A stretch of DNA of 64,000 nt from the NCBI GenBank assembly GCA_965261125.1, contig CBDHCS010000007.1, positions 254,343 to 318,342 of the forward strand, read 5' to 3'. The position numbers and the translations under genes are program-made. Positions 22,954 through 57,980 of the stretch are shown here, piece by piece. How positions within the stretch are numbered: the stretch's first letter is position 1; each line of letters opens with the position of its first letter. This stretch comes from Candidatus Poribacteria bacterium (GTDB lineage Bacteria > Poribacteria > WGA-4E > WGA-3G). The notes under the pieces were generated by a model. The model saw nothing but the letters and a program-made list of their open reading frames with translations, made no database searches and was not told the origin of the DNA.

Positions 22954-22968
22954 AAACCCTTTAATCCC

Positions 22969-26108: not shown

Positions 26109-26268
26109 ATAAAGTGAACTTTGAAAGTATTGGGACACTTTGATAAACCTGTTTTGGAACATAACGGACAATAGAAGTTGTAGCACAACCTGTTAGGTTG
26201 TGCATAATGAGACGCAAACTGACAGTTTGCTCTACAGAAGTGTCCCATTAATTGTAAGTGTTGCTATA
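26109..26268. mobile_element. MITE family A copy (A2)
   Basis: Collinear with A1: ...aagtgaactttgaaagtattgggacactttgataaacctgttttgga...tgtagcacaacctgttaggttgtgc...cgcaaactgacagtttgctctacagaagtgtcccattaattgtaagtgttgctata. Confidence 0.75.
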
Positions 26269-26274
26269 TTAAGT

Positions 26275-29448: not shown

Positions 29449-30038
29449 GGTGCGGTTCTTTAGCCGCACCTTATGTGTCAATTTAAGAAGATGAATCTGT
29501 TTTGTCTGTGTTAGACAATGTGATCCTGTCTGAACCAGGATTAGCAAATCAACGGTATGAATGCCATTTAGGCATTCCCCGGGATTACAAGGTTTACAAG
29601 ATTGAAGTCTCCACATAGGATTGGACTAATCCTGAAAATCCTATAATCTTGTCCATCTTGGTTCAGACAATTAACAATTCAGACAATACAACTGCTTAAT
29701 GGACACAAAAGCTGGGACAATTTTTCTTAAACAGGACTTACGTAATTCCCGATGTGGTTGGAAACGCGCCGTATGCATCAATTTTAGAAGATCTCTCTTG
29801 TTGGAAGTGTTTTCAACACCGAAAAGTACACATGCAAAGTAGTAGGCACACAGCGTGTGCCGTATCTCAAAGCATGCAAGACGGATGGCACACGGCCTGT
29901 GCCTACTACTTTTAAATCAACGCTAAATTGGCACCTACCGCGTAACAATAGGTGCAATTTCGTGATTTTGCGTAAGTCCTATTAAATTGACGCTTACGGT
30001 GCGGTTCTTTAGCCGCACCTTATGCATCAACTTAAGGA
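29449..30038. repeat. Non-coding composite repeat block bounded by ~40-bp direct repeats
   Basis: ggtgcggttctttagccgcaccttatg occurs at 29449-29475 and 29998-30024, with similarity extending ~14 nt further. The block encloses MITE F2 (29528-29668) and a palindrome with 15-bp perfect arms, aaagtagtaggcaca / tgtgcctactacttt (29836-29913). Confidence 0.7.
29528..29668. mobile_element. MITE family F copy (F2, degenerate) carrying a nested family C unit
   Basis: The ends gtctgaaccaggatt ... cttggttcagac match F1 termini. The interior contains aatcaacggtatgaatgccatttaggcattcccc. Confidence 0.6.
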
Positions 30039-32590: not shown

Positions 32591-33508
32591 ATGGATAAAA
32601 CACACTCAAAATCTCAAAAACAAGGCACCCAGACAAGCGCGTTCGGCACACCTGGCAGAATTAATCACGACTCAAGTGAATTCTATAAAGGCAGGCTATA
32701 CACCAATCAGGAACCTTCAGAACCCGAAACGTGGGTAGAAAACCCAATTCCAACTGAAAACCTTAACCAACTCTATTGTACCTCAAGCGAACAGATGTCC
32801 GAAATTCCAGATGGCAGCATCCATCTGATGGTCACGTCACCGCCCTATAATGTCAAAAAGGAATACGATGACGATCTGTCGTTAGACGAATACAGAGAAC
32901 TCTTACGTAAAGTGTTTGCCGAAACTTACAAAAAATTGGTGACTGGGGGGCGGGCATGTATAAATATCGCAAATTTAGGGCGAAAACCGTATATCCCATT
33001 GCATAGCTACATCATAGAAGATATGTTGGAAATAGGTTACTATATGCGTGGAGAAATCATTTGGGACAAAGCCGCAAGTGCGGGAAGTTCTACGGCATGG
33101 GGGAGTTGGTTGTCGGCAGCAAACCCTGTGCTAAGAGACGTGCATGAATATATCCTCGTTTTCTCAAAAGATACCTTTTCTCGGCAGCGCAACGGTAAAG
33201 AAAATTCTATCTGCAAAGAGGGTTTCTTAGAGTGGACAAAAAGCGTTTGGACGTTTCCTTCTGTTTCTGCCAAACGTATCGGTCATCCCGCCCCTTTTCC
33301 TGAGGAGTTGCCACATCGATTAATTCAACTCTACACTTTCATAGGAGATGTGGTATTAGACCCATTTTGTGGGAGCGGAACAACCTGTTTGAGTGCCGTT
33401 AAATTAGATAGACACTACATCGGTTACGATATTGAAGAAGAGTATATAAAATTGGCAAACGAGCGGATCAGACAGTCCACTGAGCAACTCCGTTTGCCAA
33501 TAGGTTGA
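32591..33508 (+). CDS. DNA methyltransferase, N4/N6 beta-class (motif IV SPPY, then motif I)
   Basis: LMVTSPPYNV (motif IV), HPAPFPEELPHRLI, VLDPFCGSGTT (motif I). No adjacent endonuclease is recognisable. Confidence 0.85.
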   Translation: MDKTHSKSQKQGTQTSAFGTPGRINHDSSEFYKGRLYTNQEPSEPETWVENPIPTENLNQLYCTSSEQMSEIPDGSIHLMVTSPPYNVKKEYDDDLSLDEYRELLRKVFAETYKKLVTGGRACINIANLGRKPYIPLHSYIIEDMLEIGYYMRGEIIWDKAASAGSSTAWGSWLSAANPVLRDVHEYILVFSKDTFSRQRNGKENSICKEGFLEWTKSVWTFPSVSAKRIGHPAPFPEELPHRLIQLYTFIGDVVLDPFCGSGTTCLSAVKLDRHYIGYDIEEEYIKLANERIRQSTEQLRLPIG

Positions 33509-33778: not shown

Positions 33779-36082
33779 CTATGGTGAAATTGTATACGTT
33801 TTGCCTGCTTCCGTGTGAAAGCTAACAACATCTCTTGACTGAGAATACTTAACTCGTTGACCATTGCATGTCACAGAGACAGTGCCAGGCGTTCTGACCC
33901 AACAATCATTCCCAAGAGTTGATAACAATTGCGCTTGGGTAAGTTTCCCATTTTCCCATGCCATATCCACTTCAAAACCGCCGCGGGCGCGTAATCCTTT
34001 GACATATCCTGTGTCCCAAGCTTGTGGAAGCGCAGGAAGCAAGTTAACTTCGCCAGCATGGCTCTGTAGCAACATTTCAGCGATACCCGCAGTTCCACCG
34101 AAATTACCATCAATCTGAAATGGCGGGTGCGTATCAAACAGGTTTGTCAAGGTACACCTCGCGAGAAGTGCTTGTAGATGGTTGTATGCCTCCTCTGCCT
34201 CCTCAAACCTTGCAAAGAAGTTGATGAGCCAAGCGCGACTCCATCCTGTTTGTCCGCCGCCGTGTTGCAACCGATATTCCAACGATTTCTTTGCCGCTGC
34301 CGCCAACTCTGGCGTACCGCGTAATGTTATCTGACAACTCGGATGCAGCCCATACATGTGTGACATGTGTCGGTGTCCAGGCTCCGGTTCGTCATAATCG
34401 AATACCCACTCCTGCAGTCGCCCTGTCTTCTCACTAATCTGCAGTGGCGCGAGCCGTTCAAGTGCAGAGACCAATTCTGCGCGGAAATCCGCTTCACCGC
34501 CAAGTACATCAATACAAGCGATGCAATTTGTGAAGAGTTCATGGATAATCTCCAAGTCCATCGTTGCAGCATAAGTAAAAAGGGAACGTTCGCCATCAGG
34601 CTTCAAAAAACTATTTTCGGGTGAGTGGGACGGATTTGTGACGAGTTTACCAGCAACGGGTGTGCCTTCGGGGGCTTCAACGAGGAAATCAAGTACAAAA
34701 CGGGCAGCACCCTTCATCAACGGGTATGCCTGTTTCTTAAGGAATTCCACATCTCCGCCAAAAAGGTAGTGTTCCCACACATGCTCACTCAACCATGCAG
34801 CACCCATCGGAGAGATACCCCAAATACCATCAGCAGGTGTTGTAAACCCCCACACATCGGAGAGATGATGGACAACCCATCCTCCAGCACCGTAGTGGCG
34901 TTTCGCTGTCTGATTACCCGGTTCAACGAGTGTGTCCATATAATCAAAAAGCGGTTTATGGCACTCTGGCAGATTACAGACTTCAGGGACCCAATAGTTC
35001 ATCTGTAGGTTGATGTTGGTATGAAAATCGCTGTTCCAAGGTGCCTTCATATGCTCGTTCCAAATCCCTTGCAGGTTTGCGGGGAGGCAACCCGGTCGCG
35101 AACTTCCCATTAATAGATAACGTCCATATTGAAAGTAGAGTGAAACGAGTCCTGGATCTGCTGCACCTTCTTTCACCGCTGCCAAACGTTCATTGGTCGG
35201 CAAATTTTCCGCATCGGTAGAACCGAGGTTTATGTCAACGCGTCTAAAGAGGGATTGATGTTCTGCGATGTGGTCTGCACGAATTGCTTCATAAGATTTT
35301 GTTTCAACAGCTGCAAGATAATTTTCACAAAGTTCATGTGGGTTTCCACTTGCATCTTTTTGATTAATGTAACTTGTCGCCCCAACGAGTAGAAGGGTAA
35401 CAGCATTCGCGTCATTCACAGAGATTCGGTCACCTTTCGACTGAACTTGCCCATCCTCAACGTTCAATTGTAAATATGCTGAAAACCGAACGATACCATC
35501 GCTGCACTGTCCGCTGAGTCTGAGAGTACTGTCAGAGATGGCTTCAACGGTGGCATCCTGTTCCCGTGTCATCGTAGCATCGAAAGTTATGTGGTTTGAT
35601 GGATCACATTCAATTCGGATGACGATGAGATTGTCTACTGCTGTTGCAAAAACTTCTCTGCTAAAATTGACATCTTCGCAGTGATAGGTCGTTTTCGCGA
35701 TGCCAGTGTCCAAATCCAGTTCTCGGCGATATTCTGTAACATCAGCCTCATGCGGAAATTCCAAGATGATATCTCCTAAAGACTGATACGATTTGACACG
35801 GGATGGTACTCCCAACATCGTTTCGCCTGCAAGTTTTGTTGCTTCGTCGTTTTTATCTTCAAAGAGCAATTGTTGCACTTTCGGGAGTGCTTCTAACGCC
35901 TTTGGGTTGTTAGTATCTTGCGGAGCGCCTTCCCAAAGCGTATCTTCGTTAAGTTGAATGCGTTCGCGTTCAACACCTCCGAACACCATCGCACCGAGTC
36001 GCCCGTTTCCGACTGGAAGTGCGTCTGTCCACTGTTCGGCAGGTTTGTTATACCATAAAACATAATCATTTATATTTTTCAT
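33779..36082 (-). CDS. Glycoside hydrolase family 95 (alpha-L-fucosidase-like)
   Basis: N-terminal [41 protein letters not shown] is the classic GH95 opening. The ~770 aa length fits, as does the NLQGIWN segment. Confidence 0.9.
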
Positions 36083-36158: not shown

Positions 36159-36941
36159 TTATAGCGTTGAATTATTGAGTTCATGAAGTCGTCTCTCTAG
36201 GTAGGACATTAACTCAAAATGTCCCTGCTGTTTTGATAGGTTCAATGCAGTCTGAAAATCTAATATAGCTTCATCAATTCTACCCAAACCCCATTTTATT
36301 GTTCCACGAAGAGCGTGAGCTTTTGCATGAGTATTCTTCAAATCAATGGTTTTGCCTAAATCATCAATAGCGGCTTCATATTTATTTAGCATGACATTTA
36401 CATTTGCTCTACCCAAATAGGTTTCTGCATTTTCCCTATCAAAATGAATTGCCTTGTCATAATCCTTAAGGGCATCATCATATTTGCCAAGAGCAGTATT
36501 CGCATCACCTCGAAGTTTATATGTTATACCACTATCAGATTCTAGTTCAATTGCTTTATCACAATCCAATATGGCCTCATCATATTCTTCCAAAAAATAT
36601 TTCACCAAAGCAAGACCATGATAGGACCTTGCATTTTCACCTTTTAGTTCAATTGCCTTATTATAGTCATCGATCGCTTCATAATCTACATCTAATGAAA
36701 ATTTTACTGTCCCACGAAGATTGTAGGCATCCGCATAATCTGGTTTTAACTCAATTGCCTTGTCTAAAGCAGAAAGTGCCCGTGCCTTATTGAAATCGGA
36801 GATTGTCTGATTATTATCAAATTTTCTAAAATAGAGATCTCCTAAACAAGCCCCAAACCATTGCAGCAAGTTCATCATCTGTTTCTTTCGCAGTATCAGC
36901 GATAGCGCGCCACTTTTCAATAGCTTCATGGATTTTTCCAT
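36159..36941 (-). CDS. TPR-repeat protein (start uncertain; possibly the C-terminal part of the upstream gene)
   Basis: At least 5 canonical 34-aa TPR units (DKAIELKPDYADAYNLRG..., NKAIELKGENARSYHGLA..., etc.). The 5' end overlaps the 36826-37491 ORF in another frame. Confidence 0.7.
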   Translation of the reverse strand: MEKSMKLLKSGALSLILRKKQMMNLLQWFGACLGDLYFRKFDNNQTISDFNKARALSALDKAIELKPDYADAYNLRGTVKFSLDVDYEAIDDYNKAIELKGENARSYHGLALVKYFLEEYDEAILDCDKAIELESDSGITYKLRGDANTALGKYDDALKDYDKAIHFDRENAETYLGRANVNVMLNKYEAAIDDLGKTIDLKNTHAKAHALRGTIKWGLGRIDEAILDFQTALNLSKQQGHFELMSYLERRLHELNNSTL

Positions 36942-37491
36942 CCTGTTGCAACTTGTACGCTTCAGCTATATCCTTTTTGTTTATGTGAGACGAATCAGGC
37001 TTTTTAGAAATTTTTTCAATGATTTCAGCAGTTTCCTCCTCAGGGTTAGGAATAATTTTTGCAGAGGATTCATCCAGAAAATTGTTTACCAGAGACAATT
37101 TTTCTTTAATGGCTCCGCTATATTTTTCGGAGTCGGATAGGATTTTTCGCACATCGTTCTTAAATCTCTGTGCATCAGATTCAATTTTATCAATTATACT
37201 TCGCGCTTCGATTTCAAGTTTCTGGAATTTCTTTAAGCTAAATATAGTTGCCAATGTAATTAGAATAGGGATTACAACCCCGAAAAAGGCAACAACGATA
37301 CCAAGTACAGCTAACCATTGATCTATATGTTCAGCCCGTCGATCTAATCTTTCATTTCTTTCACGAATTTTATCGTCTACAAGTTTTTGGATTTCAGGTT
37401 CTGTCATCTGTGCAGACAATACCATCAACTCACTTGCAAGCATTACACCTAACAATAGGGCAATTACAACAATTCTCATTTTATTATGCAC
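36826..37491 (-). CDS. Membrane-anchored coiled-coil protein
   Basis: Signal/TM helix MRIVVIALLLGVMLASELMVLSA, second TM helix WLAVLGIVVAFFGVVIPILITLATIF, then a helical region. The C-terminus begins a TPR-like helix pair (AEAYKLQQDGKIHEAIEKWRAIA). Confidence 0.6.
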   Translation of the reverse strand: MHNKMRIVVIALLLGVMLASELMVLSAQMTEPEIQKLVDDKIRERNERLDRRAEHIDQWLAVLGIVVAFFGVVIPILITLATIFSLKKFQKLEIEARSIIDKIESDAQRFKNDVRKILSDSEKYSGAIKEKLSLVNNFLDESSAKIIPNPEEETAEIIEKISKKPDSSHINKKDIAEAYKLQQDGKIHEAIEKWRAIADTAKETDDELAAMVWGLFRRSLF

Positions 37492-37546
37492 ATTTTCCTC
37501 CAGGTAAATAGGTTCTTTGAATGAACAGGATTAATTTGAGAACACA

Positions 37547-40204
37547 CTACCACATCCAACGCTTCCTACCTCCGAAACTACGTATGAGCTTTGCAGAGCT
37601 ATATGAATGAGATCGATCTGCTATGCGTAAAGGTGTATGACCCCATTTATCCTTGGCATTGACATCCGCCCCGTTTTGTAATAAGATTTCAACCGCGTTA
37701 TGAGAATTGTCTTTGTCCGCAGATGCTGCCCAATGTAGCGGTGTCTTATCATCTTCATCTTTAGCGTTGATATGAGCACCCTTTTCTAAGAATAGCCCAA
37801 TTTTTTTATACGCATTTCCCCAGGCAGCACAATGCAAAGGTGTATAACCTCCTTCGTACTTGATGTTAACATCAGTGATATTGTTCAACAAGAGCTCCAG
37901 TGTCTCTTGTGCACTTTTACGGCGCATTTGATATTTTTCGTATAAATTAGAAAAACTTTGCATATTTGCGTTTTGTCTGGCTGCCCTGTACAGTGGGGTC
38001 TTACCAAATTGCCCTTTTGCGTTGAAGTCAGCTCTGTTTTCCAAAAAAACCGCCACCATTTCATATAGGCCTTTATCTGCAGCTAAGTGTAAAGGTGTAT
38101 CACCACTATTATCCTTTGCATTGACATCAGCTCCGTTTTTTAGTAACACTATCACAGCCTCACGTATATTTGTATGTACCATCGTCATGCTTTTATCTAC
38201 ATCAAACTCTCCATATAACCCTTGATCTACATCTGCGCTCGCAACCCAATGCAGCGGTGTTTGATTAATCTGGTCTTTTATATTAACATCGGCACCGTGT
38301 TGTAATAAAATAGACATTGCCTTGTAACCACGCGAGTATACCACGGATCGCATCGGAGCGTTGGGATCAGCACCATTTTCCAACAAGAAAGTCATTTTCT
38401 TAAGGAGTTTTTTCTCAGCTTCCTCATTATTCTTATATGCAGAAAATCTTGATATTCTACATAAGGAAGTTTCCCCATTCTTGGCTTTTTCGTTGATATT
38501 GACACCGTTTTTCAACAAAATCAACACTGTTTCACGTATATCTTCCACGGATTTGTCATTTACCACCGCACAGTGTAAAGGTGTATCACCGTTTCTATTC
38601 TTCACATTGATATCAATACCATTTTGCAGTAATACATTTATTGCTTCTGGAGAATTTGCGGTTGCAGCCCAGTGCAATGGCGCGTCATCATGACCACGGC
38701 GAATTGGGGTTACGCCATTATTGTTTCTTGCGTTAATATCAGCACCATTTTGCAGCAAAACCACCAATGTGTCTAACGTCTGTGCTCTCACTGCCCAGTG
38801 CAGTGGCGTGTCACCTTTATTGTCTCTTGCGTTGATATCCGCACCATTTTGTAGCAACATCAGCATCTGATGTGTATTTTTTTTACTCACAGCCTGGTGG
38901 AGTGGGGAGGCACCATTATTATCTCTTGCATCAACATCAATATAATCAACAATATAGTTGTTAGGTAAAGTTCCAACTGTTCTTGCAGCAACATTACAAG
39001 AAATGGGAACTGTCAAATTACCTCCACTCGTATTGATGATTAGTGATGTTTGATGTGTCTTGTTAGATATAAGAAGACTCGTATCCAATTCAACGATAAC
39101 AACGGTATCACCGCGGATATTAGGCGGTGAAATATTAAGACCTGATATTTTGTTAGTCAATTCTACATTACCATAAAGAAATCCACGGTTGACGTTCTTA
39201 ATCTCTAAATGCATGATTTTCCGGGTTTCTGCATGGACTTCACCGAAATTAATGTGGGTATGATTGACCTCTAGCTTGGGTTTCTCAATCTTCGGGTTAA
39301 GGTATTGAACAAATTCCTCCAAACCGATGTCCTGTTCGGTATTATAACGATTGATTATGTTTTTAGCTGCATTTGCTAATTGTCCTTTTTTAGTGTGCTC
39401 AAACCAGAGATCAAGGAAGCCATTGTAAAGCAATTCCTTTGCTTGTTCCCAATTCTCATCAATCAAACATGTTATTTCATGAGGTGTTTCAGCTTCATTT
39501 CCTCGTATCTGAAATTTCAATTTTCCCTGAAGGATTTGCACCATCGCGAGAAACCCCATATTCTGATTATCAGGAAATTTACTTATAATCGTCCCTGCTG
39601 CTTTGGCAAAATTCATCTCACCTGCTTCATTGAAGTATTGTTCCAAACTACCTGAATAAAGTATTTCAACCGCATCAAGGTGATTCTTCTCCATCAAGGT
39701 TGCTAACTGCTGGATGGTAGTGGCTTCATCACCGTTAGGGAATTTGAAGATGGGACGCGTATCTTCTTCTAAAGTCTGACTATTCTCATCATATTGGAAC
39801 ACGGCAATGTGTTCACTTCGCTTTTGTGGGTTTTTTAGAGTATCACGCGCTTGGTTCAAAACTGCTCGCCACTGTTCCTCTGTTCTACCATCAGGACGCA
39901 CACGACCACCAGCATTCAGAGATTCACGGTAAAGTTTTTTATGTGCAGCATCAACTTTAGATGTAATAGTAGATTCATTTTGATTCTGAAAATCTTCTAT
40001 AGAAAATCCCAATACCTCAAAATAGTTTTCCTTTTCCCCGATGACCAATGCTGCGGCTTTCAGGATTTCAACAGCATCATCAACGGAAAGATCATGCTGT
40101 TGTACTGCCCTGCGTAGAAGACCCTTGCGTTGTTCCTCTGTGATAGTTGCTGAAACCGATTTTAAATCATCTATGAATGCAATAAATTCATCGCGTTTAG
40201 ACAT
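37547..40204 (-). CDS. J-like (HPD-less) N-module protein with a central unknown region, a beta-sandwich-like segment and a long ankyrin-repeat array
   Basis: N-terminal MSKRDEFIAFI...NYFEVLGFS...[43 protein letters not shown]. More than 10 ankyrin units (GASPLHQAV..LLQNGADINARDNKGDTPLHWAV...). Confidence 0.85.
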   Translation of the reverse strand: MSKRDEFIAFIDDLKSVSATITEEQRKGLLRRAVQQHDLSVDDAVEILKAAALVIGEKENYFEVLGFSIEDFQNQNESTITSKVDAAHKKLYRESLNAGGRVRPDGRTEEQWRAVLNQARDTLKNPQKRSEHIAVFQYDENSQTLEEDTRPIFKFPNGDEATTIQQLATLMEKNHLDAVEILYSGSLEQYFNEAGEMNFAKAAGTIISKFPDNQNMGFLAMVQILQGKLKFQIRGNEAETPHEITCLIDENWEQAKELLYNGFLDLWFEHTKKGQLANAAKNIINRYNTEQDIGLEEFVQYLNPKIEKPKLEVNHTHINFGEVHAETRKIMHLEIKNVNRGFLYGNVELTNKISGLNISPPNIRGDTVVIVELDTSLLISNKTHQTSLIINTSGGNLTVPISCNVAARTVGTLPNNYIVDYIDVDARDNNGASPLHQAVSKKNTHQMLMLLQNGADINARDNKGDTPLHWAVRAQTLDTLVVLLQNGADINARNNNGVTPIRRGHDDAPLHWAATANSPEAINVLLQNGIDINVKNRNGDTPLHCAVVNDKSVEDIRETVLILLKNGVNINEKAKNGETSLCRISRFSAYKNNEEAEKKLLKKMTFLLENGADPNAPMRSVVYSRGYKAMSILLQHGADVNIKDQINQTPLHWVASADVDQGLYGEFDVDKSMTMVHTNIREAVIVLLKNGADVNAKDNSGDTPLHLAADKGLYEMVAVFLENRADFNAKGQFGKTPLYRAARQNANMQSFSNLYEKYQMRRKSAQETLELLLNNITDVNIKYEGGYTPLHCAAWGNAYKKIGLFLEKGAHINAKDEDDKTPLHWAASADKDNSHNAVEILLQNGADVNAKDKWGHTPLRIADRSHSYSSAKLIRSFGGRKRWMW

Positions 40205-40265
40205 CTATTCGTTTCTCTTCAAAATTAGCGTGTTTACACTATACCCAAATGTTGTCAGATAAGAA

Positions 40266-41486
40266 TTATAACAATACAGATTTAACACAACGAAAGCCAA
40301 TCTCAGGGTTCGTGAGTCGAGGGTGGTTGGGACAGCGGTTAGAGATACCCACGTCTTGAACTGTAGTGACCCAAGAGCCACCCCGCAAAACACGGGGTTT
40401 TTTAATACTTTTGAAATTGTTTGTCACACTTATGATATTTTCATCTGATAACAGATTCCGGCGTGGAAAACTCCCATAAAATCCATACTCATCAAGACAC
40501 CATTCCCACACGTTTCCCACCATATCGTATAAATCGTACCCGTTCGGAGGATAATTCCCTATGGGTGTAGTTGAACCGACATTTTTGCCATAGTTTGCCT
40601 TATTAGTATCTATCAAATCGCCCCATGGATATTTTTGATCTACCAATCCACCACGTGCTGCCTTTTCCCATTCTGCCTCTATCGGTAAACGCTTGCCTAA
40701 CCACTCGGCATAAGCCATCGCCGCATACCAACTAATATGGACAACTGGATGCTCAGCTTTGTCCTCCGGGTAATCGTTCCCATTCCAGTGGTGAAGGTAG
40801 TAACTATCGTGGTACGCGGCGGAAAGAAATTTTGTAACTCCTTTCGGTTTCCTCCATCGTGGGTTAGCATCAACAAATGTCTTGTATTGTGCATTGGTTA
40901 CCGGATACTTGTCCATATAGAATGCGTCTACAAAAACGGTATGTATTGGCTGTTCATCACTAAATGATTCATTATCATTACTACCCATTTGCATTTGGAA
41001 CTCACCTGCTGAAATAAGCTCCATGTTATCAAGATATAATGGAGCTAATGGTGTTTCTACCGATTCTTCACCATGCTGGTAAATCTCAAGGTGCGCGCGT
41101 CGTTTTTGTGGGTCTATTAGCGCATCACGCGCTTGATTCAGAATTGTTCTCCACTGTTCTTCTGTCCTACCATCGGCGCGGGGACGACCACCTGCCCTTA
41201 ACGATTCACTGTAAAGTTTTTTGTGTGCTGTCTCAACGCGATTTGCAATGACCGATTCGCTTTGGTTTTCAAACTCTGGAGCAGATAAACCCAAGACCTC
41301 AAAATAATCAATCTGCTCACCGACAACTAATCCTGATGCATCAAGAATATCATTCGCCTCTTCAACAGTAAGATCATGCTGCTGGACCGCTTGTCGGAGA
41401 AATCCTTTGCGTTGTTCGTTAGAAATAGATGGTGAAGCATTTCTAACCGCCTGAATAATTGTAATAAATTCATCGCGTTTGGACAT
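40266..41486 (-). CDS. J-like (HPD-less) N-module protein fused to an FGE-sulfatase (SUMF1/formylglycine-generating-enzyme-like) domain
   Basis: It has the same N-module as its neighbours. C-terminal FYMDKYPVTNAQYKTFV...HPVVHISWYAAMAYAEWLGKRLPIEAEWEKAARGG...GNVWEWCLDEY...RVLRGGSW...GFRCV. Confidence 0.85.
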   Translation of the reverse strand: MSKRDEFITIIQAVRNASPSISNEQRKGFLRQAVQQHDLTVEEANDILDASGLVVGEQIDYFEVLGLSAPEFENQSESVIANRVETAHKKLYSESLRAGGRPRADGRTEEQWRTILNQARDALIDPQKRRAHLEIYQHGEESVETPLAPLYLDNMELISAGEFQMQMGSNDNESFSDEQPIHTVFVDAFYMDKYPVTNAQYKTFVDANPRWRKPKGVTKFLSAAYHDSYYLHHWNGNDYPEDKAEHPVVHISWYAAMAYAEWLGKRLPIEAEWEKAARGGLVDQKYPWGDLIDTNKANYGKNVGSTTPIGNYPPNGYDLYDMVGNVWEWCLDEYGFYGSFPRRNLLSDENIISVTNNFKSIKKPRVLRGGSWVTTVQDVGISNRCPNHPRLTNPEIGFRCVKSVLL

Positions 41487-41584
41487 TCGGTATGCCTCTT
41501 TCTAAAAATTGATACAAACAAATATGTATTGTTGCTGTTTCTCAGAAATTTATCTGAGCCAATAAGCATCGTATAATCTTAACC

Positions 41585-42958
41585 TTAACTACTGGGTGTG
41601 AGATTCCACAGACGTACATCTTTGTCCGTACTACAAGTAGCAAGAGTCCTGCCATCAGGCGAATACGCAAGCGATTTAACCAAAGATGAGTGCCCTGTAA
41701 GAGTATCTTTAGGTTGTCCAGTAACAGCATCTAACAAATAAACTGTTCCAAAAAAACTTCCATAGGCGAGAGTGAGATTATCGGGGGAATACGCTACTGA
41801 ACTAACCCAAGATAAGTATCCAGAGAGAGGGATTTTGGGTTCTCCAGTAGTAGCACTCCACTCAAGAACTTTTCCATAGATACAAGTACTCGTAACTACT
41901 TTACTATCAGGTGAATACACTACAAAACTTGCGCTATGCTTATGACCTGTAAGCGTGTGTATATTTTGACATGTAATAGCATCCCATAAACGAACTGTCC
42001 TATCATAACCTGCACTTACGATCATCTTACCATCGGGCGAATACGCTACTGAACTAATCCAATTCTTATGTCCTCTGAGATCGTATTTGAATTGTCCTGT
42101 GGCAGCATCCCACAAACGAACTGTCCTATCATAACTTGCACTTGCGATCATCTTACCATCGGGCGAATACGCTACTGAACTAATGTTGTCCTTATGTCCA
42201 CTCAGGGCGTTTTTGAGTTTTCCAGTGGTAGTGTCCCACAAACACACTATGCTGTCATAACTCACACTGACGAGTGTCTTACCATCAGGTGAATATGCTA
42301 TTGAACTGACGGTGTCTTTGTGTCCAGTGAGAGTATTTTTAGATTTTCCTGTGACAGCATCCCATAGATATATTGTCTTGTCTGCACCGCCACTTGCAAC
42401 GGTAGTCCCATCAGGTGAAAACGCAACGGAATAGACAATGTCCTCATGTGCTGTAAAAACTACATTTCTTGCTTGAATTGGAGGTTTCACGGTAGCACCG
42501 TTTGAATTTAGAAAAATATCTTCGTTAGATTCTCTACCTTCCGTGTCATTCAGCTCCGCAATATGTTCATATCTTTTTTTCGGATCACTAAGAATATCTC
42601 GCGCTTGATTCAGAATTGTTCGCCACTGCTCCTCTGTTCTACCATCAGCGCGAGGTCGACCGCCTGCTCTCAATGACTCAGCATACAGTTTTTTGTGCGC
42701 CGCTTCAACGCGGGATGTAACGTCCGATTCGCTTCGGTTTTTAAGTTTAGAAAATGATAAACCCAGAACCTCAAAATAATCAACTTGCTCACCGATAGCC
42801 AATCCCGATGCATTGAGGATATTAGATGCTTCATCAAAGGTAAGACCGTGCTGCTGAATCCCTAATCGCAGAAAACCTTTGCGTTGTTCATCGGTAATTG
42901 TTGGGGAAGCAGTTTTGAGGGTATTGATAAATGATATAAATTCCTCACGTTTGGACAT
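41585..42958 (-). CDS. J-like (HPD-less) N-module protein fused to a 7-bladed WD40 propeller
   Basis: By homology with the two paralogs, the start is the [11 protein letters not shown] at 42958 (the track starts at 42979). There are seven units of the type [24 protein letters not shown]....L.GH. Confidence 0.85.
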
Positions 42959-43049
42959 ACGTTTGTTCCTTCTGTTCAAACTTAGGAGATTATAGAAATC
43001 GCACCATAAATTGTTTCTGTCAAAAAGTGGTTATTTTAAGAATCCATGC

Positions 43050-44645
43050 CTATTCAACTACGAGGTCTTGTAGATCAGTTTTTGCTTGTGCCACTTCCTC
43101 TTCATTGAGCGTTGGTCGATCAATAATCGAAAAAATGTCATAAATAGCCGTTGCACCTTCGTTAGAGAGAGATGTGGCAGTGACCTCAAGATTCTGGTCC
43201 AAGTTATACTTGTAGATGACTTCAATTGGAGACCCTTGAGGTAAACCTGGGGGCAGTTTGAGCGTACATTCACCCAATTTATATTCATCAAATAGGTCAA
43301 TTTCGTCCTTGAGTTGTTCCTGTTCAAGCCCTTGTACCACCTCAATTAAAACGGAAGGTTGATTGTGATCCACCGTCAAAAACTTATCCGCTATTTCGCA
43401 CGGAACAGCAGTCATTTTAGGAATCATCACGTGAATAATATGCTCGCGTTGAGAGTTGAGAACGACGAGTCCGAGATTATGTGTAGCACCATCGGTTACA
43501 GTCACTTTCGGAGCGCCGTCTGGTCCAATAAACCGTTCAATGACAGCGTCCGGCATATCTGTTGTTTCGGTGCTTCCTTCGGATATTTGGCGGAGTGTTC
43601 CCTGAATTGCTGCACCGATGGCGACAACTTCGTCCGGATTGACTTCATACGGGTTGATCTCTTTACCACTAATTGTGGCAATCATCTGCTGCACCATAGG
43701 CATCCGAGTTGAGCCACCTACCAGCAGGATTTTGTCAATATCTGTCCACGTCATTTCTGCTTCGGAAAGGACAACATCACACAAAACTCGGCATCTTTCA
43801 AGGAGATTATCAGTCAATTCCTCGAACTTTCCGCGCTCCAGTTCCACACGGGTTGTTTTCCCGTTGTAACCACAAACGATCAATGCTCGCTGCCGCTGCG
43901 ACAAAGATTCTTTCGCAGCAATCGCATCAAGTTGAAGGTCTTGGTACGTATGAAGGTCTTCTAACGGATTTTCTCCGTGTTCAATTTCAAACATCTCAGC
44001 GACGTGCGTGATGATTTTATCGTCCCAATCCTTACCGCCGAGCCGATGGTCACCATTCGTTGCGAGCATCTGAATTTCTGATTCGGAAACTTTCATGATG
44101 GTTACGTCAAACGTTCCGCCTCCAAGGTCAAATACGAACACATTTTGGTTACTGCCCAATTGATCAATACCGTAGGCAAGCGCAGCGGCTGTAGGTTCGT
44201 TCAGCACTTGCAGCACATTCAAACCAGCGATTTTTCCAGCGTTGCGAGTCGCTTCACGTTCAGCATCATGAAAATAGGCAGGGACAGTGATAACCGCATC
44301 CGTAATTTCTTCATTCAGATATGCCTCTGCATCCTGCTTGAGTTTTGTCATAATAAGTGCTGAGAGTTCTTCGGGGGAGTAGTCTTTCCCATCAAATGAA
44401 CGAAAGAATTCCGACTTGGATTTACCCATTTCACGTTTCACGAATTCTACGATCTGTTCAGGAACTGCTCTGGCGTTCTGCTTGGCGATTTTCCCGACAG
44501 TTACGAGATTGTCCTCAAACAGGACTACCGATGGCGTAATACGATCACTTTCTAAATTCGGAATAATCTCTGGTTGACCATGCTCATTGATATGTGCTAT
44601 CACAGAGAATGTCGTGCCAAGATCAATCCCAACAACTTTACCCAT
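43050..44645 (-). CDS. Hsp70-family ATPase, short (about 531 aa), lacking most of the helical lid
   Basis: Strong AGGAAGGAGG RBS 7 nt before the ATG at 44645. VVGIDLGTTFSV, DLGGGTFDVTIM and ILLVGGSTRMPMV actin-fold motifs. A beta-sandwich SBD is followed by only ~25 residues. Confidence 0.9.
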   Translation of the reverse strand: MGKVVGIDLGTTFSVIAHINEHGQPEIIPNLESDRITPSVVLFEDNLVTVGKIAKQNARAVPEQIVEFVKREMGKSKSEFFRSFDGKDYSPEELSALIMTKLKQDAEAYLNEEITDAVITVPAYFHDAEREATRNAGKIAGLNVLQVLNEPTAAALAYGIDQLGSNQNVFVFDLGGGTFDVTIMKVSESEIQMLATNGDHRLGGKDWDDKIITHVAEMFEIEHGENPLEDLHTYQDLQLDAIAAKESLSQRQRALIVCGYNGKTTRVELERGKFEELTDNLLERCRVLCDVVLSEAEMTWTDIDKILLVGGSTRMPMVQQMIATISGKEINPYEVNPDEVVAIGAAIQGTLRQISEGSTETTDMPDAVIERFIGPDGAPKVTVTDGATHNLGLVVLNSQREHIIHVMIPKMTAVPCEIADKFLTVDHNQPSVLIEVVQGLEQEQLKDEIDLFDEYKLGECTLKLPPGLPQGSPIEVIYKYNLDQNLEVTATSLSNEGATAIYDIFSIIDRPTLNEEEVAQAKTDLQDLVVE

Positions 44646-45342
44646 TGGCGTTACCTCCTTCCTCATTTAAAGGAGATTCATCTGCGGCAGATGTATAACG
44701 AAAAATTGTCACCTCTTCTGGTCGGAACACTTTATCTCGCCAGTTAAACCCGACTTTGTGAACTTCCGCCACTTTTCCATCCTGTTTTGGATCATCGGAT
44801 GATATTACTTTGCGCGTTTTGTGTAACTGCCGATCAAGTGTCTCCAGGGATTCCTTATAGGGTGTTACATCCATGCGGTATAACACTTCTTCCAGTTTAA
44901 ACCGGAAGTTTTCTAAATTCTTCCTATATTGTGACAGTTCTTCTAAGAGCATGCTCTCCTCTTTATCAGTGAGGATGTCATCAAGTTGAGATTCTATAGA
45001 TAGAAAACTATCGTAAAGTTGGATGAGATTGTGGATAATCGGTTTGTGAAGCACCTCAAGCAGAAAACTCTCTTTATAGTCCTTCATTTCAGTGTACATT
45101 TTGTCAAACATCTGGGTTTGATTCTGGTTGCGGGCAATTTGTTTTTCAAATAAGTCTTGCAACGCAGCCAAAGTCTGATTTATTTCTATGAGTGCATTTG
45201 CTTGCGGTATTTCTAAGTCATCCGTATCCGTTTGCGGATCAGTCTCAACAGGACCTGTGTTTTCTTCCAAATATAAATCTTCATCTGTATTCACATCAGT
45301 CTGGACACTGATATCGTTATTTCCATTCACTTGCTTACTCAA
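44638..45342 (-). CDS. GrpE-like nucleotide exchange factor (divergent)
   Basis: The C-terminal KVAEVHKVGFNWRDKVFRPEEVTIF matches the GrpE beta-domain pattern (V..V...G......v.RPa.V.v), with a long helical region upstream. The proposed TTG start at 45342 lies 7 nt after AAGGAGAG. The stop overlaps the Hsp70 start by 8 nt. Confidence 0.65.
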   Translation of the reverse strand: MSKQVNGNNDISVQTDVNTDEDLYLEENTGPVETDPQTDTDDLEIPQANALIEINQTLAALQDLFEKQIARNQNQTQMFDKMYTEMKDYKESFLLEVLHKPIIHNLIQLYDSFLSIESQLDDILTDKEESMLLEELSQYRKNLENFRFKLEEVLYRMDVTPYKESLETLDRQLHKTRKVISSDDPKQDGKVAEVHKVGFNWRDKVFRPEEVTIFRYTSAADESPLNEEGGNANG

Positions 45343-45406
45343 AATTGAACTCTCCTTGCAACAAAGGTTTTCTTGGAGGCGGTACTGTTTAGTAAAGTCT
45401 CTTTTG

Positions 45407-45435
45407 ATTATACAATGGATTAGGTGGAATGTCAA
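45407..45435 (-). promoter_or_regulatory. Consensus sigma70 promoter of the GrpE-Hsp70 operon
   Basis: On the minus strand: TTGACA (45435-45430), a 17-nt spacer, TATAAT (45412-45407). The -35 element coincides with the ORF-track start codon, which argues for the downstream TTG start. Confidence 0.6.
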
Positions 45436-49765: not shown

Positions 49766-49856
49766 TATAGCACAAACTTTAGTTTGGGTTTCCGATAAGA
49801 CGCAAACTGACAGTTTGCTCTACAGAAGTGTCCCATTAATTATAGGTTTTACTATA
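49766..49856. mobile_element. MITE family A copy (A3, shortened); its right TIR overlaps the 3' end of the methyltransferase gene
   Basis: agacgcaaactgacagtttgctctacagaagtgtcccattaattataggttttactata is near-identical to the right half of A2. Confidence 0.65.
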
Positions 49857-50795
49857 AAAAGTTGTCTTTATTCTCTCTTGTGCGCGACCTGCCATCTCAG
49901 CCTCAATCTCATACCCGATAAAATTCCTGCCTTCAAGTATCGCCGCGACTCCAGTTGATCCTGACCCCGCGAAAGAATCAAGAACGAGGGCGCGGGGTGC
50001 AGAAAAAATGCGGATGAGGTGTTGCAGTAAATCAACAGGTTTTGCGGTCATGTGTCCATATCGCTCTTTTGGTTTATTTGATGGAATGACAGTTCCCGGA
50101 AATTGAGATGTGTTGATCAAAGGGTTGTTCACGTCAATTAGTCCAGTTTCCCACTTATCCCAGTTATCAACAAAAGTTCCTTCTCTGGGGGCTTGTCCGA
50201 GAATTATCATTTCCCCTTGTGGCTTTAGTTGTGGTGTTTTCCGTCCGCCTATTTTTTGAATAAGCCGGTCTTTTTCTTTTGTTGGAATCTTTCGTTTACG
50301 GATAAAATGATCTTGTGAGAATGCTTTTGCTTGTCCTTCATATCGCCATATCAAAATGTCCCGTATTTCAAAACCCGCGTCTTCTAATGCAATAGCGGTT
50401 CTATGTGCGAGTCGGTTTTGGCTAAAAACGAGGCAAAATCCGCCGGGGCGAATAACGCGCATCCATTCTTCAGCAATAGGTGAAAGAAAACGTTGCAACT
50501 CTCGTCCCTGTTCGACAGAAAACTTCATCCCCGCTGGTAGTGAACCGATAACGCCTGGTTTCACTCGTGCATTTAACTTTCGTGTGTCCCAATCATCCCC
50601 CATGCCATCAATGAAATAGGGGGGATCTGTAAGCACAAGAGAGACAGAATTCTCATCGAGTTGTTTCATTCCAATCCGACAATCTTCATTTTCTATTATT
50701 GCGGATAAATCCTCATGAGTTGCTGGCGAACGGAATAACTTTTGCTGATATAGTGAGAATTTGTCTGGACCATCATCAATATTTTCGTTTTTCAA
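49836..50795 (-). CDS. DNA methyltransferase, beta-class N6-adenine type (DPPY)
   Basis: LVLTDPPYFI (motif IV), GHMTAKPVDLLQHLI, VLDSFAGSGSTGVAA (motif I). No endonuclease gene is adjacent. Confidence 0.85.
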   Translation of the reverse strand: MKNENIDDGPDKFSLYQQKLFRSPATHEDLSAIIENEDCRIGMKQLDENSVSLVLTDPPYFIDGMGDDWDTRKLNARVKPGVIGSLPAGMKFSVEQGRELQRFLSPIAEEWMRVIRPGGFCLVFSQNRLAHRTAIALEDAGFEIRDILIWRYEGQAKAFSQDHFIRKRKIPTKEKDRLIQKIGGRKTPQLKPQGEMIILGQAPREGTFVDNWDKWETGLIDVNNPLINTSQFPGTVIPSNKPKERYGHMTAKPVDLLQHLIRIFSAPRALVLDSFAGSGSTGVAAILEGRNFIGYEIEAEMAGRAQERIKTTFYSKTYN

Positions 50796-52539: not shown

Positions 52540-52704
52540 GTCTGAACCATGATTTTCAAGATTATCAGATTTTCAGGATTTTTGAGTGTTATCCATCAAC
52601 CGCTATCCTACGTCCAAAAGCGGACGATAAACATGTTCATAGACACTAAATCCACAAAAAACCCATCTTGATAATCCGATAATCTTGAAAATCATGGTTC
52701 AGAC
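52540..52704. mobile_element. MITE family F copy (F1) with perfect 27-bp terminal inverted repeats
   Basis: gtctgaaccatgattttcaagattatc (52540-52566) is the exact reverse complement of 52678-52704. Confidence 0.8.
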
Positions 52705-52873
52705 AATAAGTGATTCAGGACGGACAATAAGTCCATTGATGTATTAACGTCTGTGATAAAATCTGCCAGGTAGTAGGTGGTATCACCATAGTGTACATTA
52801 GTAAATAGGCTTCTGGATCAATAGTTAAAGTCAAGAAGGTGTCTGCATATCTAAAATCTTATAGGTGAAATAT

Positions 52874-53119
52874 TGTAGAGCAAACTGTCAGTTTGCGGAC
52901 GAATATGCACAATCTAAATGAAGTTTAAGAAAATAAATCGGTAATTTGACGAGGTTAGGAAGAAATCAAGAAATCAACGGTATGAATGACATTTAGTCAT
53001 TCCCCGGGTATGAATGCCATTTAGGCATTCCCCGCCTCGCCAGCGGGGGAGTACACCTGTCTCGTACGGATAGAAAATTACCGAATTAATAAATTAATCT
53101 TCATACAGATTGTGCTACA
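52874..53119. repeat. Family D double-hairpin palindrome (tgtag...ctaca) interrupted by MITE B2
   Basis: tgtagagcaaactgtcagtttgc...gcacaatctaa[B2]acagattgtgctaca. The uninterrupted form is seen at 57924-57980. Confidence 0.7.
52918..53104. mobile_element. MITE family B copy (B2) carrying two tandem family C units
   Basis: atgaagtttaagaaaataaatcggtaattt ... aaattaccgaattaataaattaatcttcat. The interior has ggtatgaatgacatttagtcattcccc followed by ggtatgaatgccatttaggcattcccc. Confidence 0.75.
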
Positions 53120-53272
53120 TAAGTAGCAACTTGGGTATTTAAGTATAATGAGGTATATTGAGTCCAGTATATTTTGATAATTCTAATTAGCAAAGTTTTA
53201 GTTGAAAAACCGCATATTAATCTGATACACTGTATATACTATAGTCAAATTCACAATTACTAAAGGGGCGAT

Positions 53273-57923: not shown

Positions 57924-57980
57924 GTAGCGCAAACTGTCAGTTTGCGTCGTTTTATGCACAATCTAACAGATTATGCTACA
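57924..57980. repeat. Family D double-hairpin palindrome, uninterrupted copy
   Basis: gtagcgcaaactgtcagtttgcgtcgttttatgcacaatctaacagattatgctaca. Confidence 0.7.

Follow-up and report, generated by a model that had tools for sequence, protein, structure and literature searches.

[quoted passage not shown] The canonical system combines DnaK and GrpE with one DnaJ, which carries the HPD tripeptide, a G/F region, a zinc finger and the DnaJ C-terminal domain (CTD). J-like proteins that lack HPD and do not stimulate Hsp70 are also known, e.g., mitochondrial Pam16/Tim16, which has the J fold and regulates the true J-protein Pam18 but does not itself drive Hsp70. In the GAP1-N2 GTPase conflict systems, which occur chiefly in actinobacteria and firmicutes, HSP70 and GrpE are associated with a J-type fusion bearing repeat/TPR modules, and the DnaJ domains are canonical (Kaur, Burroughs, Iyer, Aravind 2020-2021). 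Finally, the FGE-sulfatase ("FGS") fold serves as a lectin-like sensor in FGS-domain proteins, and it occurs without the catalytic Cys pair in SUMF2/pFGE and in the DGR variable protein TvpA.

The locus described here resembles the HscC-DjlB/DjlC arrangement in that a specialised Hsp70 stands beside tandem paralogous J-like partners, some relatives of which are likewise membrane-anchored; its Hsp70 also shares the deletions of HscC (DnaK 76-101, the D211 loop and the GrpE-signature loop) and the insertion in L1,2. In contrast to HscC, which keeps Arg167 and a shortened lid, this Hsp70 has Gln at that position and no lid; it is only 34% identical to HscC, close to the 35% found for DnaK. Its GrpE is translationally coupled, and up to 10 partners, equipped with FGE, WD40 or ankyrin domains, stand in one array, with AGG...RxDG[RK]T in place of HPE. 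The canonical system is matched in the NBD catalytic residues, linker Asp393, SBD-beta, a GrpE-family NEF and a J-fold partner, whereas the DnaK equivalog cut-off, the lid and tail, Arg167 and CIRCE are not; the partners lack HPD, G/F region, zinc finger and DnaJ CTD, and many alternatives stand in for one DnaJ. With Pam16 the partners share a J fold without HPD; no HPD partner is encoded at the locus. Unlike the GAP1-N2 systems, the Poribacteria loci have no GAP1-N2 GTPase, tubulin, FNIII protein, MoxR/vWA or effector-associated domain; unlike TvpA and other DGR proteins, they have no reverse transcriptase or template repeat, their diversity residing in fixed paralogues; and unlike SUMF2/pFGE and TvpA, the FGE domain is part of one polypeptide with a J-like module, and its gene is linked to that of an Hsp70. 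The system as a whole seems to be undescribed. From its sequence features, the locus is probably, with considerable room for doubt, a specialised Hsp70 machine that is separate from the housekeeping DnaK and is served by a family of substrate-receptor co-chaperones.

Gene order and junctions

The window (the whole stretch of DNA analysed, 64,000 nucleotides of a Candidatus Poribacteria genome) contains seven minus-strand open reading frames at exactly the coordinates first assigned to them, together with a promoter and a downstream neighbour:

45407..45435, minus strand: sigma-70 consensus promoter TTGACA-17-TATAAT 5' of grpE (direct reading)
44638..45342, minus strand: GrpE-like nucleotide exchange factor, 234 aa, TTG start (Pfam GrpE)
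43050..44645, minus strand: short non-canonical Hsp70, 531 aa (PF00012, 1.5e-122)
41585..42958, minus strand: J-like adaptor 1, N-module (aa 1-~140) and 7-blade WD40 propeller, 457 aa (Pfam WD40, 1.4e-69)
40266..41486, minus strand: J-like adaptor 2, N-module and predicted non-catalytic FGE-sulfatase (C-type-lectin-like) fold, 406 aa (PF03781, 1.5e-62)
37547..40204, minus strand: J-like adaptor 3, N-module, mid-domain and ~12 ankyrin repeats, 885 aa (Pfam Ank, about 1e-60)
36159..37491, minus strand: TM/coiled-coil (CC) ORF (36826-37491) and TPR ORF (36159-36941), probably one frameshifted TM-CC-TPR gene
33779..36082, minus strand: GH95 alpha-L-fucosidase-family gene (Pfam GH95, 4.4e-176), downstream syntenic context and not a shown component

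The gene coordinates, the grpE/hsp70 overlap, the ribosome-binding site, the perfect promoter and every domain call of the first-pass annotation were confirmed, and Pfam profile searches of the seven products recovered GrpE, HSP70, WD40, FGE-sulfatase, Ank and TPR. The promoter is the sole 12/12 match within 33.5-46 kb; both hexamers and their spacing are kept in five related genomes (L003-L007), in which the sequence farther 5' diverges and does not align. No CIRCE element was found at the grpE-hsp70 operon, which together with the consensus sigma-70 promoter argues that the system is not heat-shock wired. The stop of grpE and the start of hsp70 overlap by 8 nt (reading ATGGGTAA), and the overlap is preceded by the hsp70 ribosome-binding site GAAGGAGGT. 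The intergenic gaps after hsp70 measure 91, 98, 61 and 55 nt, and no terminator-like site was found in any of these four; the sequence is consistent with a single transcription unit for all seven reading frames.

The last two reading frames, originally counted as part of the system, have to be set apart from it. They overlap by 116 nt in different frames, and homologues pass through the corresponding stretch ("...DLAAxAWFSxGNLFSK") in a single frame; most probably they represent one gene split by a frameshift near 36860-36880. Homologues of this gene are absent from 58 related loci; one found elsewhere adjoins a Type ISP restriction enzyme. The TPR product is well recognised (Pfam TPR, 7.5e-31); a match to SLATT_1 is weak (E 0.0064).

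The short Hsp70, its GrpE and the J-like module

The GrpE-like protein matches PF01025 at 2.7e-12 (47.1 bits against a gathering cut-off of 25.8; model positions 19-163 of 165) and scores under the NCBIfam GrpE equivalog cut-offs, and it is thus a divergent member of the family. Among the 42 Hsp70 loci that the genome scan found in Poribacteria, 28 have an orthologue with 59-77% identity directly 5' of the Hsp70 gene, as do L001, L059 and L061-L063; in the other 14 scanned loci GrpE is absent or replaced by a 299-aa ankyrin protein. Once L001 and L059-L062 are counted, GrpE is missing in 15/47 Hsp70 loci, about a third, which indicates that the triad of GrpE, Hsp70 and J-like protein is not obligatory.

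The Hsp70 belongs to its superfamily (PF00012, 410 bits) and fails the DnaK equivalog models (NF001413/TIGR02350; 425 bits against 648, and 411 against 823); NCBI labels its orthologues "Hsp70 family protein", not DnaK. In alignment with E. coli DnaK and HscC, residues D8, K70, E171, D194, T199, D201 and D393 are kept; with its NBD catalytic residues intact, the protein is predicted to be ATPase-competent. The interdomain linker is altered to VTVTD, and the alignment shows deletions at DnaK positions 76-98, in the D211 loop and at 286-291. The SBD-beta, which aligns with DnaK 400-508, bears an insertion in L1,2, and the protein terminates near helix A, without alpha-helical lid or C-terminal tail. 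DnaK R167 reportedly pairs with D35 of DnaJ, the aspartate of HPD (Suh 1998; Kityk 2018); at this position the Hsp70 family has Q in 117 of the 119 clusters with a readable motif, H in two and R in none. The deleted loop includes D211, a named J-contact (PMC8215388). The equivalog scores, the missing lid and the Gln at the Arg167 position support the original view of a dedicated GrpE/Hsp70 unit and not a housekeeping one.

The N-modules of the three adaptors are pairwise 58-69% identical across about 135-158 aa (tblastn E 1e-57 to 1e-63), and tblastn found no fourth copy within the window. Each consists of a 3-helix subdomain and a J-domain fold: for the AF2 model (pLDDT 86) Foldseek ranked only J-domains among the top 20 PDB fold matches, at a probability of about 1 and a TM (target) as high as 0.72, and hhalign against the E. 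coli DnaJ J-domain gave a probability of 78.6% (E 1.7e-5), placing the HPD of DnaJ opposite A-G-G. Sequence profiles respond weakly; the Pfam DnaJ score (PF00226) is 12.8 bits, under the gathering cut-off of 27.8, and Pam16 matches at E 0.0034. The HPD tripeptide is absent from all 246 family members searched (0/246). In its place 241/246 carry an RxDG[RK][TS] loop (consensus A-G-G-R-P-R-x-D-G-[RK]-T), and conservation over all paralogues peaks in residues 91-120, which comprise this loop and helix III. Models and profile alignments thus bear out the early description of these proteins as HPD-less and J-like; the N-module is predicted to belong to the J-domain fold without its HPD tripeptide. 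The strong conservation of the replacement loop coincides with the change in the cognate Hsp70 at the matching contact, the R167 position.

Partner repertoire and genomic setting

The N-module plus WD40 architecture of adaptor 1, whose closest orthologue is 65% identical, recurs in 17/251 family members in other Poribacteria, often as the first gene after Hsp70. Adaptor 2 (orthologues in L003-L006 82-83% identical) has a clear FGE-sulfatase fold (PF03781, 212 bits) that matches human SUMF1/SUMF2 and bacterial FGE structures in PDB (E about 1e-28 to 1e-30) as well as TvpA (PDB 2y3c, E 4.7e-15). In alignment with S. coelicolor FGE 2Q17, it lacks the catalytic Cys pair (human C336/C341; GGSYxCHxSYC); a CxxxxC after GGSW was found in none of the 225 FGE-type members (0/225), and the FGE domains of the family are predicted to be catalytically dead. 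Adaptor 3 has, between N-module and ankyrin repeats, a mid-domain (aa ~146-410) of two 5-helix repeats and an ASH/PapD-like Ig sandwich (AF2 pLDDT 92.4; Foldseek matches to PapD/ASH-like domains), which also occurs in L040, L026, L059, L060, L061 and about 25 representatives. In L003-L006 the third gene ends in an FGE domain, but its N-module shares 81-85% identity with that of adaptor 3; this orthology points to a swap of the C-terminal domain in adaptor 3, and the proposed interchangeability of these modules is thereby upheld. The WD40, FGE and ankyrin trio itself is atypical: 85% of the partner family is FGE-type, WD40 and ankyrin being minority variants, where the partner genes of other loci were classed by BLAST against the window's own domains only. 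Some partners and relatives carry a membrane anchor.

The genome scan comprised 56 loci in the genomes of 43 Poribacteria species, and a short Hsp70 (82-96% identity) lies immediately 5' of 1-10 tandem N-module genes in 42/56. This linkage supports the proposal that the Hsp70 is shared by several alternative J-like partners, and the neighbourhood, whose conservation was an open question of the first-pass annotation, also recurs in unrelated, high-GC bacteria outside the Poribacteria. In L063, from an organism of 65% GC, the triad of GrpE, short Hsp70 and J-like protein has a TM+PG_binding+PEGA+TPR module at the C-terminus of its J-like partner; in L061/62 the partner combines N-module, mid-domain, TM and HEAT. 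Most loci occupy one syntenic site, flanked by a sulfatase and GH95. In 38 related loci the array is followed by the GH95 gene in the same orientation, and methylase, GNAT and ADH genes come next; since the order sulfatase-...-GH95-methylase-GNAT-ADH is kept in about 40 loci, the locus is not a mobile island. It is a vertically inherited, syntenic core site across the phylum.

The paralogues within a locus are far less alike than their counterparts across species (best identity, median 55% within a locus and 89% across species), and clustering at 70% identity yields 74 groups, most of which draw a single member from each locus. The binding loops 171-180, 211-245, 291-310, 341-360 and 371-395 differ between groups (entropy about 2.3 bits) and are fixed inside them (0.14-0.5); the region of the catalytic Cys pair is the most variable among paralogues. 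The specificity-determining variation spans the RGGSW to GFRC motifs of the FGE fold, the same stretch that holds the DGR variable regions of TvpA-type proteins. No reverse transcriptase was found among the scanned flanking ORFs, and no TR/VR-type direct repeat involving the FGE gene in the 64 kb; this gene does not qualify as a DGR target. The paralogues form ancient 1:1 orthogroups with binding loops under purifying selection.

Alternative readings and a model of the machine

The first-pass annotation had raised a conflict or defence system like STAND/NLR. In such a system J-like sensors would detect invaders, and the Hsp70/GrpE cycle would act as the switch, or else as an effector that sequesters or unfolds the invader protein once it is bound. 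This is an unlikely reading of the locus. FGS, WD40, ankyrin and TPR are sensor modules of counter-invader systems (PMC7159879, PMC8195603), HSP70+GrpE+DnaJ-fusion themes occur in GAP1-N2 conflict systems, and an Hsp70-vWA fusion gene joins the triad in L061, L062 and L067. The tandem arrays with their C-terminal domain swaps, a copy number of 1-10, 20 fragmentary copies in the family of 251, an IS insertion in L001 and array turnover between genomes with 95% identical Hsp70s would also match an immune-type repertoire. No positive evidence emerged, however: Pfam and PADLOC identified no nuclease, protease, TIR, pore or other effector domain in the window operon products, PADLOC matching generic repeats only, and neither a STAND NTPase (NACHT/NB-ARC/AP-ATPase) nor an effector domain was found in the seven products and flanks. 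The sole candidate membrane effector, the TM/coiled-coil ORF, is frameshifted, window-specific and in unrelated contexts elsewhere. A vertical core site is also not a variable island, and ancient 1:1 orthogroups with conserved loops and no DGR or template repeat are not lineage-specific, fast-evolving expansions.

A broader form would be Hsp70-based surveillance, a chaperone counterpart of NLR/STAND immunity kept across the phylum in these sponge symbionts, with a germline panel of J-like receptors, an HPD-independent interface and an Hsp70 that neutralises or signals the target; we regard it as improbable. It is similarly doubtful that the receptors (lectin-fold, WD40, ankyrin, or TM with periplasmic sensors) recognise foreign or host molecules in such a scheme, with the private GrpE as nucleotide switch.

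A chaperone centred on sulfatases has a slim chance of being correct. SUMF2/pFGE-like FGE folds would pick up Cys-type sulfatases in the unfolded state, or else related enzymes of the cytoplasm or destined for export, and hand them to the Hsp70, keeping the client competent for formylglycine modification or folding in the service of the large sulfatase repertoire of the Poribacteria, which are sulfatase-rich (PMC7081726). In about 40 loci a 426-aa cytoplasmic Cys-type sulfatase (no signal peptide; CSPSR; 81-98% identity) lies immediately 5' on the same strand, ending 14 nt ahead of the Hsp70 start in L032; a GH95 fucosidase lies downstream, and the partner domain adopts the fold of sulfatase-modifying factors, the enzymes among which bind CxPxR peptides in unfolded form. 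Yet the adjacency may be plain synteny, as gene order around the locus is generally conserved, and a conserved promoter dedicated to grpE lies 3' of the sulfatase gene. The window itself has no upstream sulfatase, nor do L060-L063 outside the core clade, whereas L059 retains one with a single J-like partner that lacks FGE. Maximal variability in the Cys-pair region is unexpected if all partners recognised an invariant CxPxR, and the WD40, ankyrin and HEAT variants would be left unexplained.

Far less probable is a role in host interaction, in which the N-module would be a chaperone-binding or trafficking tag and the Hsp70 would keep repeat proteins export-competent for the sponge host. Ankyrin and other eukaryote-like domains are enriched in the Poribacteria, which live as sponge symbionts, and polymorphic secreted proteins likewise join variable C-terminal cargo to a constant N-terminal module; but neither a signal peptide nor a secretion-system gene was found in the operon, the J fold and matching changes in the J-face of the Hsp70 point to co-chaperone docking and not trafficking, and homologous triads with membrane-anchored partners are also present in high-GC bacteria outside the Poribacteria. 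It is barely credible that the locus is a common housekeeping grpE-dnaK operon and that the repeat-protein genes behind it are unrelated, for although gene order and translational coupling resemble classical dnaK operons, the Hsp70 falls below the DnaK cut-offs and is not called DnaK by NCBI, lacks lid and tail as well as the J-contact and GrpE-signature loops and has Q at R167, there is no HPD-bearing DnaJ or CIRCE element, and linkage to N-module genes spans phyla.

As a specialised Hsp70 machine, the locus would consist of four kinds of parts: a lidless Hsp70, usually its own GrpE, tandem receptors, and in these a conserved N-module joined to a variable C-terminal domain. The C-terminal domain, usually a dead FGE/C-type-lectin fold, would capture a specific ligand or client, and the J-like module would dock at the NBD/linker face of the ATP-bound Hsp70, a face that may have been re-tooled by the change from Arg167 to Gln and the D211-loop deletion. 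Docking would trigger hydrolysis, upon which the SBD could clamp a segment of the captured protein, and GrpE would reset the cycle; the logic would be akin to that of F-box or BTB substrate receptors serving one engine. The group-fixed binding loops and the vertical core site suggest that the targets are conserved molecules more likely than fast-evolving phage proteins, and endogenous proteins or stable host or environmental ligands are the more likely candidates. If this model is correct, sponge symbionts would possess a private Hsp70 with exchangeable receptors and an altered mode of J-domain docking.

Gene order, promoter and flanking features

The seven minus-strand open reading frames of the first-pass annotation, running from 45435 to 36159, were recovered with unchanged coordinates, behind a TTGACA-17-TATAAT promoter that can be read directly at 45435-45407; this is the sole 12/12 promoter match within 33.5-46 kb, and its hexamers and spacing are kept at the same site 5' of grpE in five related genomes, where the sequence farther upstream is unalignable. 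The overlap of the grpE stop with the hsp70 start, also annotated previously, reads ATGGGTAA and is preceded by GAAGGAGGT; the four intergenic gaps measure 91, 98, 61 and 55 nt, and none of them contains a terminator-like site on the coding strand. Heat-shock control of the operon was considered and rejected, as CIRCE and Rfam elements are both absent. Pfam searches upheld the domain assignments of the operon products: GrpE (above gathering), HSP70 (1.5e-122), WD40, FGE-sulfatase, ankyrin (about 12 repeats in the window ankyrin protein) and TPR.

The last two reading frames of the string, a TM/coiled-coil protein and a TPR protein, were located as annotated, but do not stand as separate genes. 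They overlap by 116 nt (window 36826-36941) in different frames, and homologues cross the junction in one frame ('...DLAAxAWFSxGNLFSK'), which indicates a single frameshifted TM-coiled-coil-TPR gene that is not counted in the system. The junction near 36860-36880 lies beside a T3/G4 run and probably represents a frameshift, through either pseudogene formation or assembly error. The few homologues occur in other contexts, for example adjoining a Type ISP restriction enzyme, and no counterpart was found in 58 related loci; this absence, the frameshift and a sub-threshold SLATT score of 16.5 bits vs. 41 led us to reject the TM/coiled-coil frame as a SLATT-type pore effector.

Short interspersed intergenic repeat families, in many of which palindromic units occur (GCAAACTGTCAGTTTGC and GAATGCCATTTAGGCATTC, for example), look like REP/MITE-type elements. 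The window also contains two DNA methylase genes with no obvious restriction partner close by, the first of which belongs to the gene order conserved 3' of the GH95 gene that adjoins the array.

Further features of the window
16651-16706, 22794-22960, 26110-26275, 29529-29682, 49795-49863, 52665-53144, 55911-55957, 57924-58283: intergenic repeats
32591-33508 (+): N6/N4 DNA methylase gene (PF01555)
49836-50795 (-): N6/N4 DNA methylase gene (PF01555)

The short Hsp70 and its J-like partners

Bacterial Hsp70s are usually sorted into three types, DnaK, HscA and HscC. The window Hsp70 (531 aa), beside which no second Hsp70 was found within the 64-kb window, is 35% identical to DnaK and 34% to HscC, and its score against the NCBI DnaK equivalog (425 bits) is under the cut-off of 648. 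In alignment with E. coli DnaK, residues D8, K70, E171, D194, T199, D201 and linker D393 are all kept; DnaK 76-98, the D211-containing loop and the six residues 286-291 are missing, and L1,2 of SBD-beta bears an insertion. Since the protein terminates near helix A, the alpha-helical lid and the tail are missing as well. HscC is described with the same NBD deletions and L1,2 insertion, D211 as a J-domain contact and residues 290-295 as the GrpE signature (PMC8215388). Where DnaK has Arg167, the 119 family clusters with a readable motif have Gln (117) or His (2) and in no case Arg, the residue that HscC has here. The aspartate of the HPD motif reportedly pairs with Arg167 of DnaK (Suh 1998; Kityk 2018).

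J-proteins are defined by this HPD motif, the trigger of the Hsp70 ATPase. The three genes downstream of the window Hsp70 had been described as sharing a J-like N-terminal module without HPD, and this description is borne out: their N-modules are 58-69% identical (tblastn E 1e-57 to 1e-63), HPD occurs in 0 of 246 family members, and the J fold emerges from both structure prediction and profile alignment. All top 20 PDB matches of the AF2 model (pLDDT 86) are J-domains, with a probability of about 1 and a TM score on the target of at most 0.72; hhalign against the J-domain of E. coli DnaJ gave a probability of 78.6% (E 1.7e-5) and placed the A-G-G of the N-module on the H-P-D of DnaJ. Pfam matches are all sub-threshold (Pam16 0.0034, DnaJ 0.13). 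Of the 246 members, 241 carry the motif R-x-D-G-[RK]-[TS], and the best-conserved stretch over all paralogues, residues 91-120, comprises the HPD-replacing loop and helix III. Searched as a profile against 1.8 billion representative proteins, the N-module resolved into a helical subdomain (residues 1-58) and a second part (residues 59-137) that other proteins often carry on its own at their N-terminus. The 64-kb window holds no further N-module copy. An apparent fusion of Hsp70 NBD and N-module (P0104), a potential Rosetta-stone protein, comes from a 1x-coverage long-read contig and was set aside as a probable artefact of assembly or frameshift.

Distribution and evolution of the arrays

The N-module profile matched 73 proteins, and all those with an organism name belong to Candidatus Poribacteria, a dominant uncultured sponge-symbiont phylum. 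When 185,579 species were scanned, each represented by one genome, 120 relatives in 56 loci, or 43 genomes by accession-prefix count, were recovered, a sample biased to the Poribacteria clade because the scan pattern was family-specific; 52 of these loci are labelled Poribacteria, 51 of them as 'Candidatus Poribacteria' and one as 'uncultured Poribacteria', and the four from an 'uncultured bacterium' (L029, L033, L041, L046) have Poribacteria synteny. With the N-module as query the neighbourhood proved to be conserved: a short Hsp70 (82-96% identity) lies directly 5' of one to ten tandem N-module genes in 42 of the 56 loci. GrpE is found directly 5' of Hsp70 in 28 of these 42, and L001, L059 and L061-L063 have it there too; its place is taken by a 299-aa ankyrin protein in nine of the 42, and a sulfatase abuts Hsp70 in five. 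Upstream, on the same strand, about 40 loci share a 426-aa Cys-type sulfatase (CSPSR; 81-98% identity) that is predicted to be cytoplasmic, since a signal peptide is absent; the array is followed by GH95, DNA methylase, GNAT and ADH genes. The window keeps this downstream synteny and has a divergent LeuA-like gene in the sulfatase place, with the breakpoint just 5' of the promoter. The stand-alone ankyrin protein, situated between sulfatase and Hsp70, occurs in one Poribacteria subclade (69-91% identity, nine loci); in one locus (L032) the sulfatase ends 14 nt 5' of the Hsp70 start.

Features of the compared loci
Loci among L003-L059, e.g. L059:7944-9230, L001:1254-2534, L032:7070-8341; not in the window: 426-aa sulfatase
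L036:5903-6802; equivalents in L031, L037, L041, L043, L044, L048, L050, L056: 299-aa ankyrin protein
L061:2582-4753; L062:2626-4797; L067:1-954: Hsp70-vWA fusion, GC about 50%, different neighbours

More distant loci repeat the association. A GC-65% contig (L063) encodes GrpE and a 523-aa Hsp70 (62% identity, likewise with Gln at R167), plus a J-like protein whose head consists of a TM segment with PG-binding, PEGA and TPR domains; in another lineage (L061/62), an Hsp70-vWA fusion and GrpE are accompanied by a 521-aa Hsp70 and an N+mid+TM+HEAT protein. The fusion (723 aa) has kept Arg167 and lies directly 5' of the GrpE/short-Hsp70/J-like triad, and on a 1x-coverage contig (L067) several tandem Hsp70 paralogues are interspersed with J-like proteins. 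Other representatives are J-like+TM+FGE proteins with a predicted extracytoplasmic FGE domain. At L060:11709-14667, an N-module+mid+TM frame (532 aa) precedes a separate TM+FGE frame (373 aa); this pair resembles the single J-like+mid+multi-TM+FGE proteins P0144/P0145 and may be a transmembrane receptor-like form that is split or frameshifted.

The annotated WD40, FGE and ankyrin trio is real in the window but atypical: the 251 N-module ORFs comprise 212 N+FGE, 17 N+WD40, one N+mid+ankyrin, one N+mid+FGE and 20 fragments, so that FGE dominates the family and the window trio is an unusual selection. The FGE fold of the window protein is clear (PF03781, 1.5e-62; PDB FGEs, about 1e-30); as the catalytic Cys pair is absent from it and from 225 of 225 relatives, a formylglycine-generating function is ruled out. 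The 270-aa mid-domain between N-module and repeats of the window ankyrin protein, which many relatives also carry, is predicted (pLDDT 92.4) to form two repeats of five helices each together with an ASH/PapD-like Ig sandwich; its fold search returned generic ASH/PapD-like Ig matches only, with no lead on function.

The C-terminal domains have a median best identity of 55% to a same-locus paralogue and 89% to other species, and clustering at 70% identity gives 74 groups, mostly with one member per locus and extending over up to 19 loci. Loops 171-180, 211-245, 291-310, 341-360 and 371-395 vary by about 2.3 bits between groups and by 0.14-0.5 within them. The last of these, between the RGGSW and GFRC motifs, spans the FGE catalytic loop position and corresponds to the site of DGR variable regions in TvpA-type proteins; DGR diversification was rejected, as no template/variable repeat was found in the 64 kb. 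Modules are exchanged: the N-module of the window ankyrin gene is 81-85% identical to that of the third array gene of L003-L006, which there has an FGE C-terminus. This replacement is recent (window 37547-40204 vs. L003:10542-11804 and L005:11295-12635; the Hsp70s are 95% identical). Conserved targets are suggested by the ancient 1:1 orthologue groups, by their conserved binding loops and by the vertical inheritance of the core site.

Proposed mechanism, alternatives and significance

We argue that the N-module is a docking element for its own Hsp70, based on the tight, cross-phylum linkage of the two genes, the J fold with the HPD-replacing loop as its best-conserved feature, and the R167Q exchange and D211-loop deletion on the J-binding face. 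The J fold would dock on this face of the Hsp70, the variable heads would confer specificity, and docking may trigger the ATPase. Docking by a common module and specificity by variable heads together lead to the reading that we consider somewhat probable, in which a set of related substrate receptors serves one dedicated Hsp70 engine.

Chaperoning centred on the sulfatase would fit the cytoplasmic sulfatase adjoining the locus and the SUMF-like fold of the heads; yet the window and the distant relatives lack a sulfatase, L059 has one next to a partner without FGE domain, synteny is general over the region, and the loop expected to bind the motif is hypervariable, which makes this alternative rather doubtful. 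The role in defence or conflict that the first-pass annotation had envisaged appears comparably improbable. The head domains are typical sensors (PMC7159879; PMC8195603), and the arrays gain, lose and swap members; however, no effector-type domain was detected by Pfam or PADLOC in the window operon products, the context is not island-like, and purifying selection acts on the loops. PADLOC produced generic WD40/Ank/TPR matches and none for the FGE protein, and a known defence system was rejected on this basis. Delivery to the host and a plain housekeeping operon are unlikely.

Among known systems, HscC with DjlB/DjlC comes closest: it too is a specialised Hsp70, has paralogous J-partners encoded next to it and shows the same NBD deletions; the window system differs by the lost lid, the change of Arg167 to Gln, the coupling to GrpE and the arrangement of partners in arrays, and its partners lack HPD/HPE whereas DjlB/DjlC carry HPE. 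The E. coli K-12 hscC locus (L065, 676000-688000) contains two tandem DUF1266-Djl pairs, ybeR-djlB and ybeU-djlC, and the Sel1-repeat genes ybeQ and ybeT, a small-scale parallel to the Poribacteria array. Full-text literature searches found no description of the architecture; the nearest mention is an HSP70/GrpE/DnaJ-FNIII theme in GAP1-N2 GTPase systems (PMC7159879).

The window Hsp70 looks like a fourth lineage beside DnaK, HscA and HscC, in which both partners have other residues at the HPD/Arg167 contact, the lid is lost, GrpE is retained despite the deleted GrpE-signature loop, and the co-chaperone has become an array of as many as ten putative receptors whose heads are lectin-like, WD40 or ankyrin domains. 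Provided that the two partners do interact, they would constitute a natural experiment on HPD-free J-domain triggering of Hsp70, and a bacterial case of 'one engine, many substrate receptors'. For Poribacteria, the system is a conserved and apparently unannotated trait, which may be relevant to how they metabolise sulfated glycans or associate with their host.
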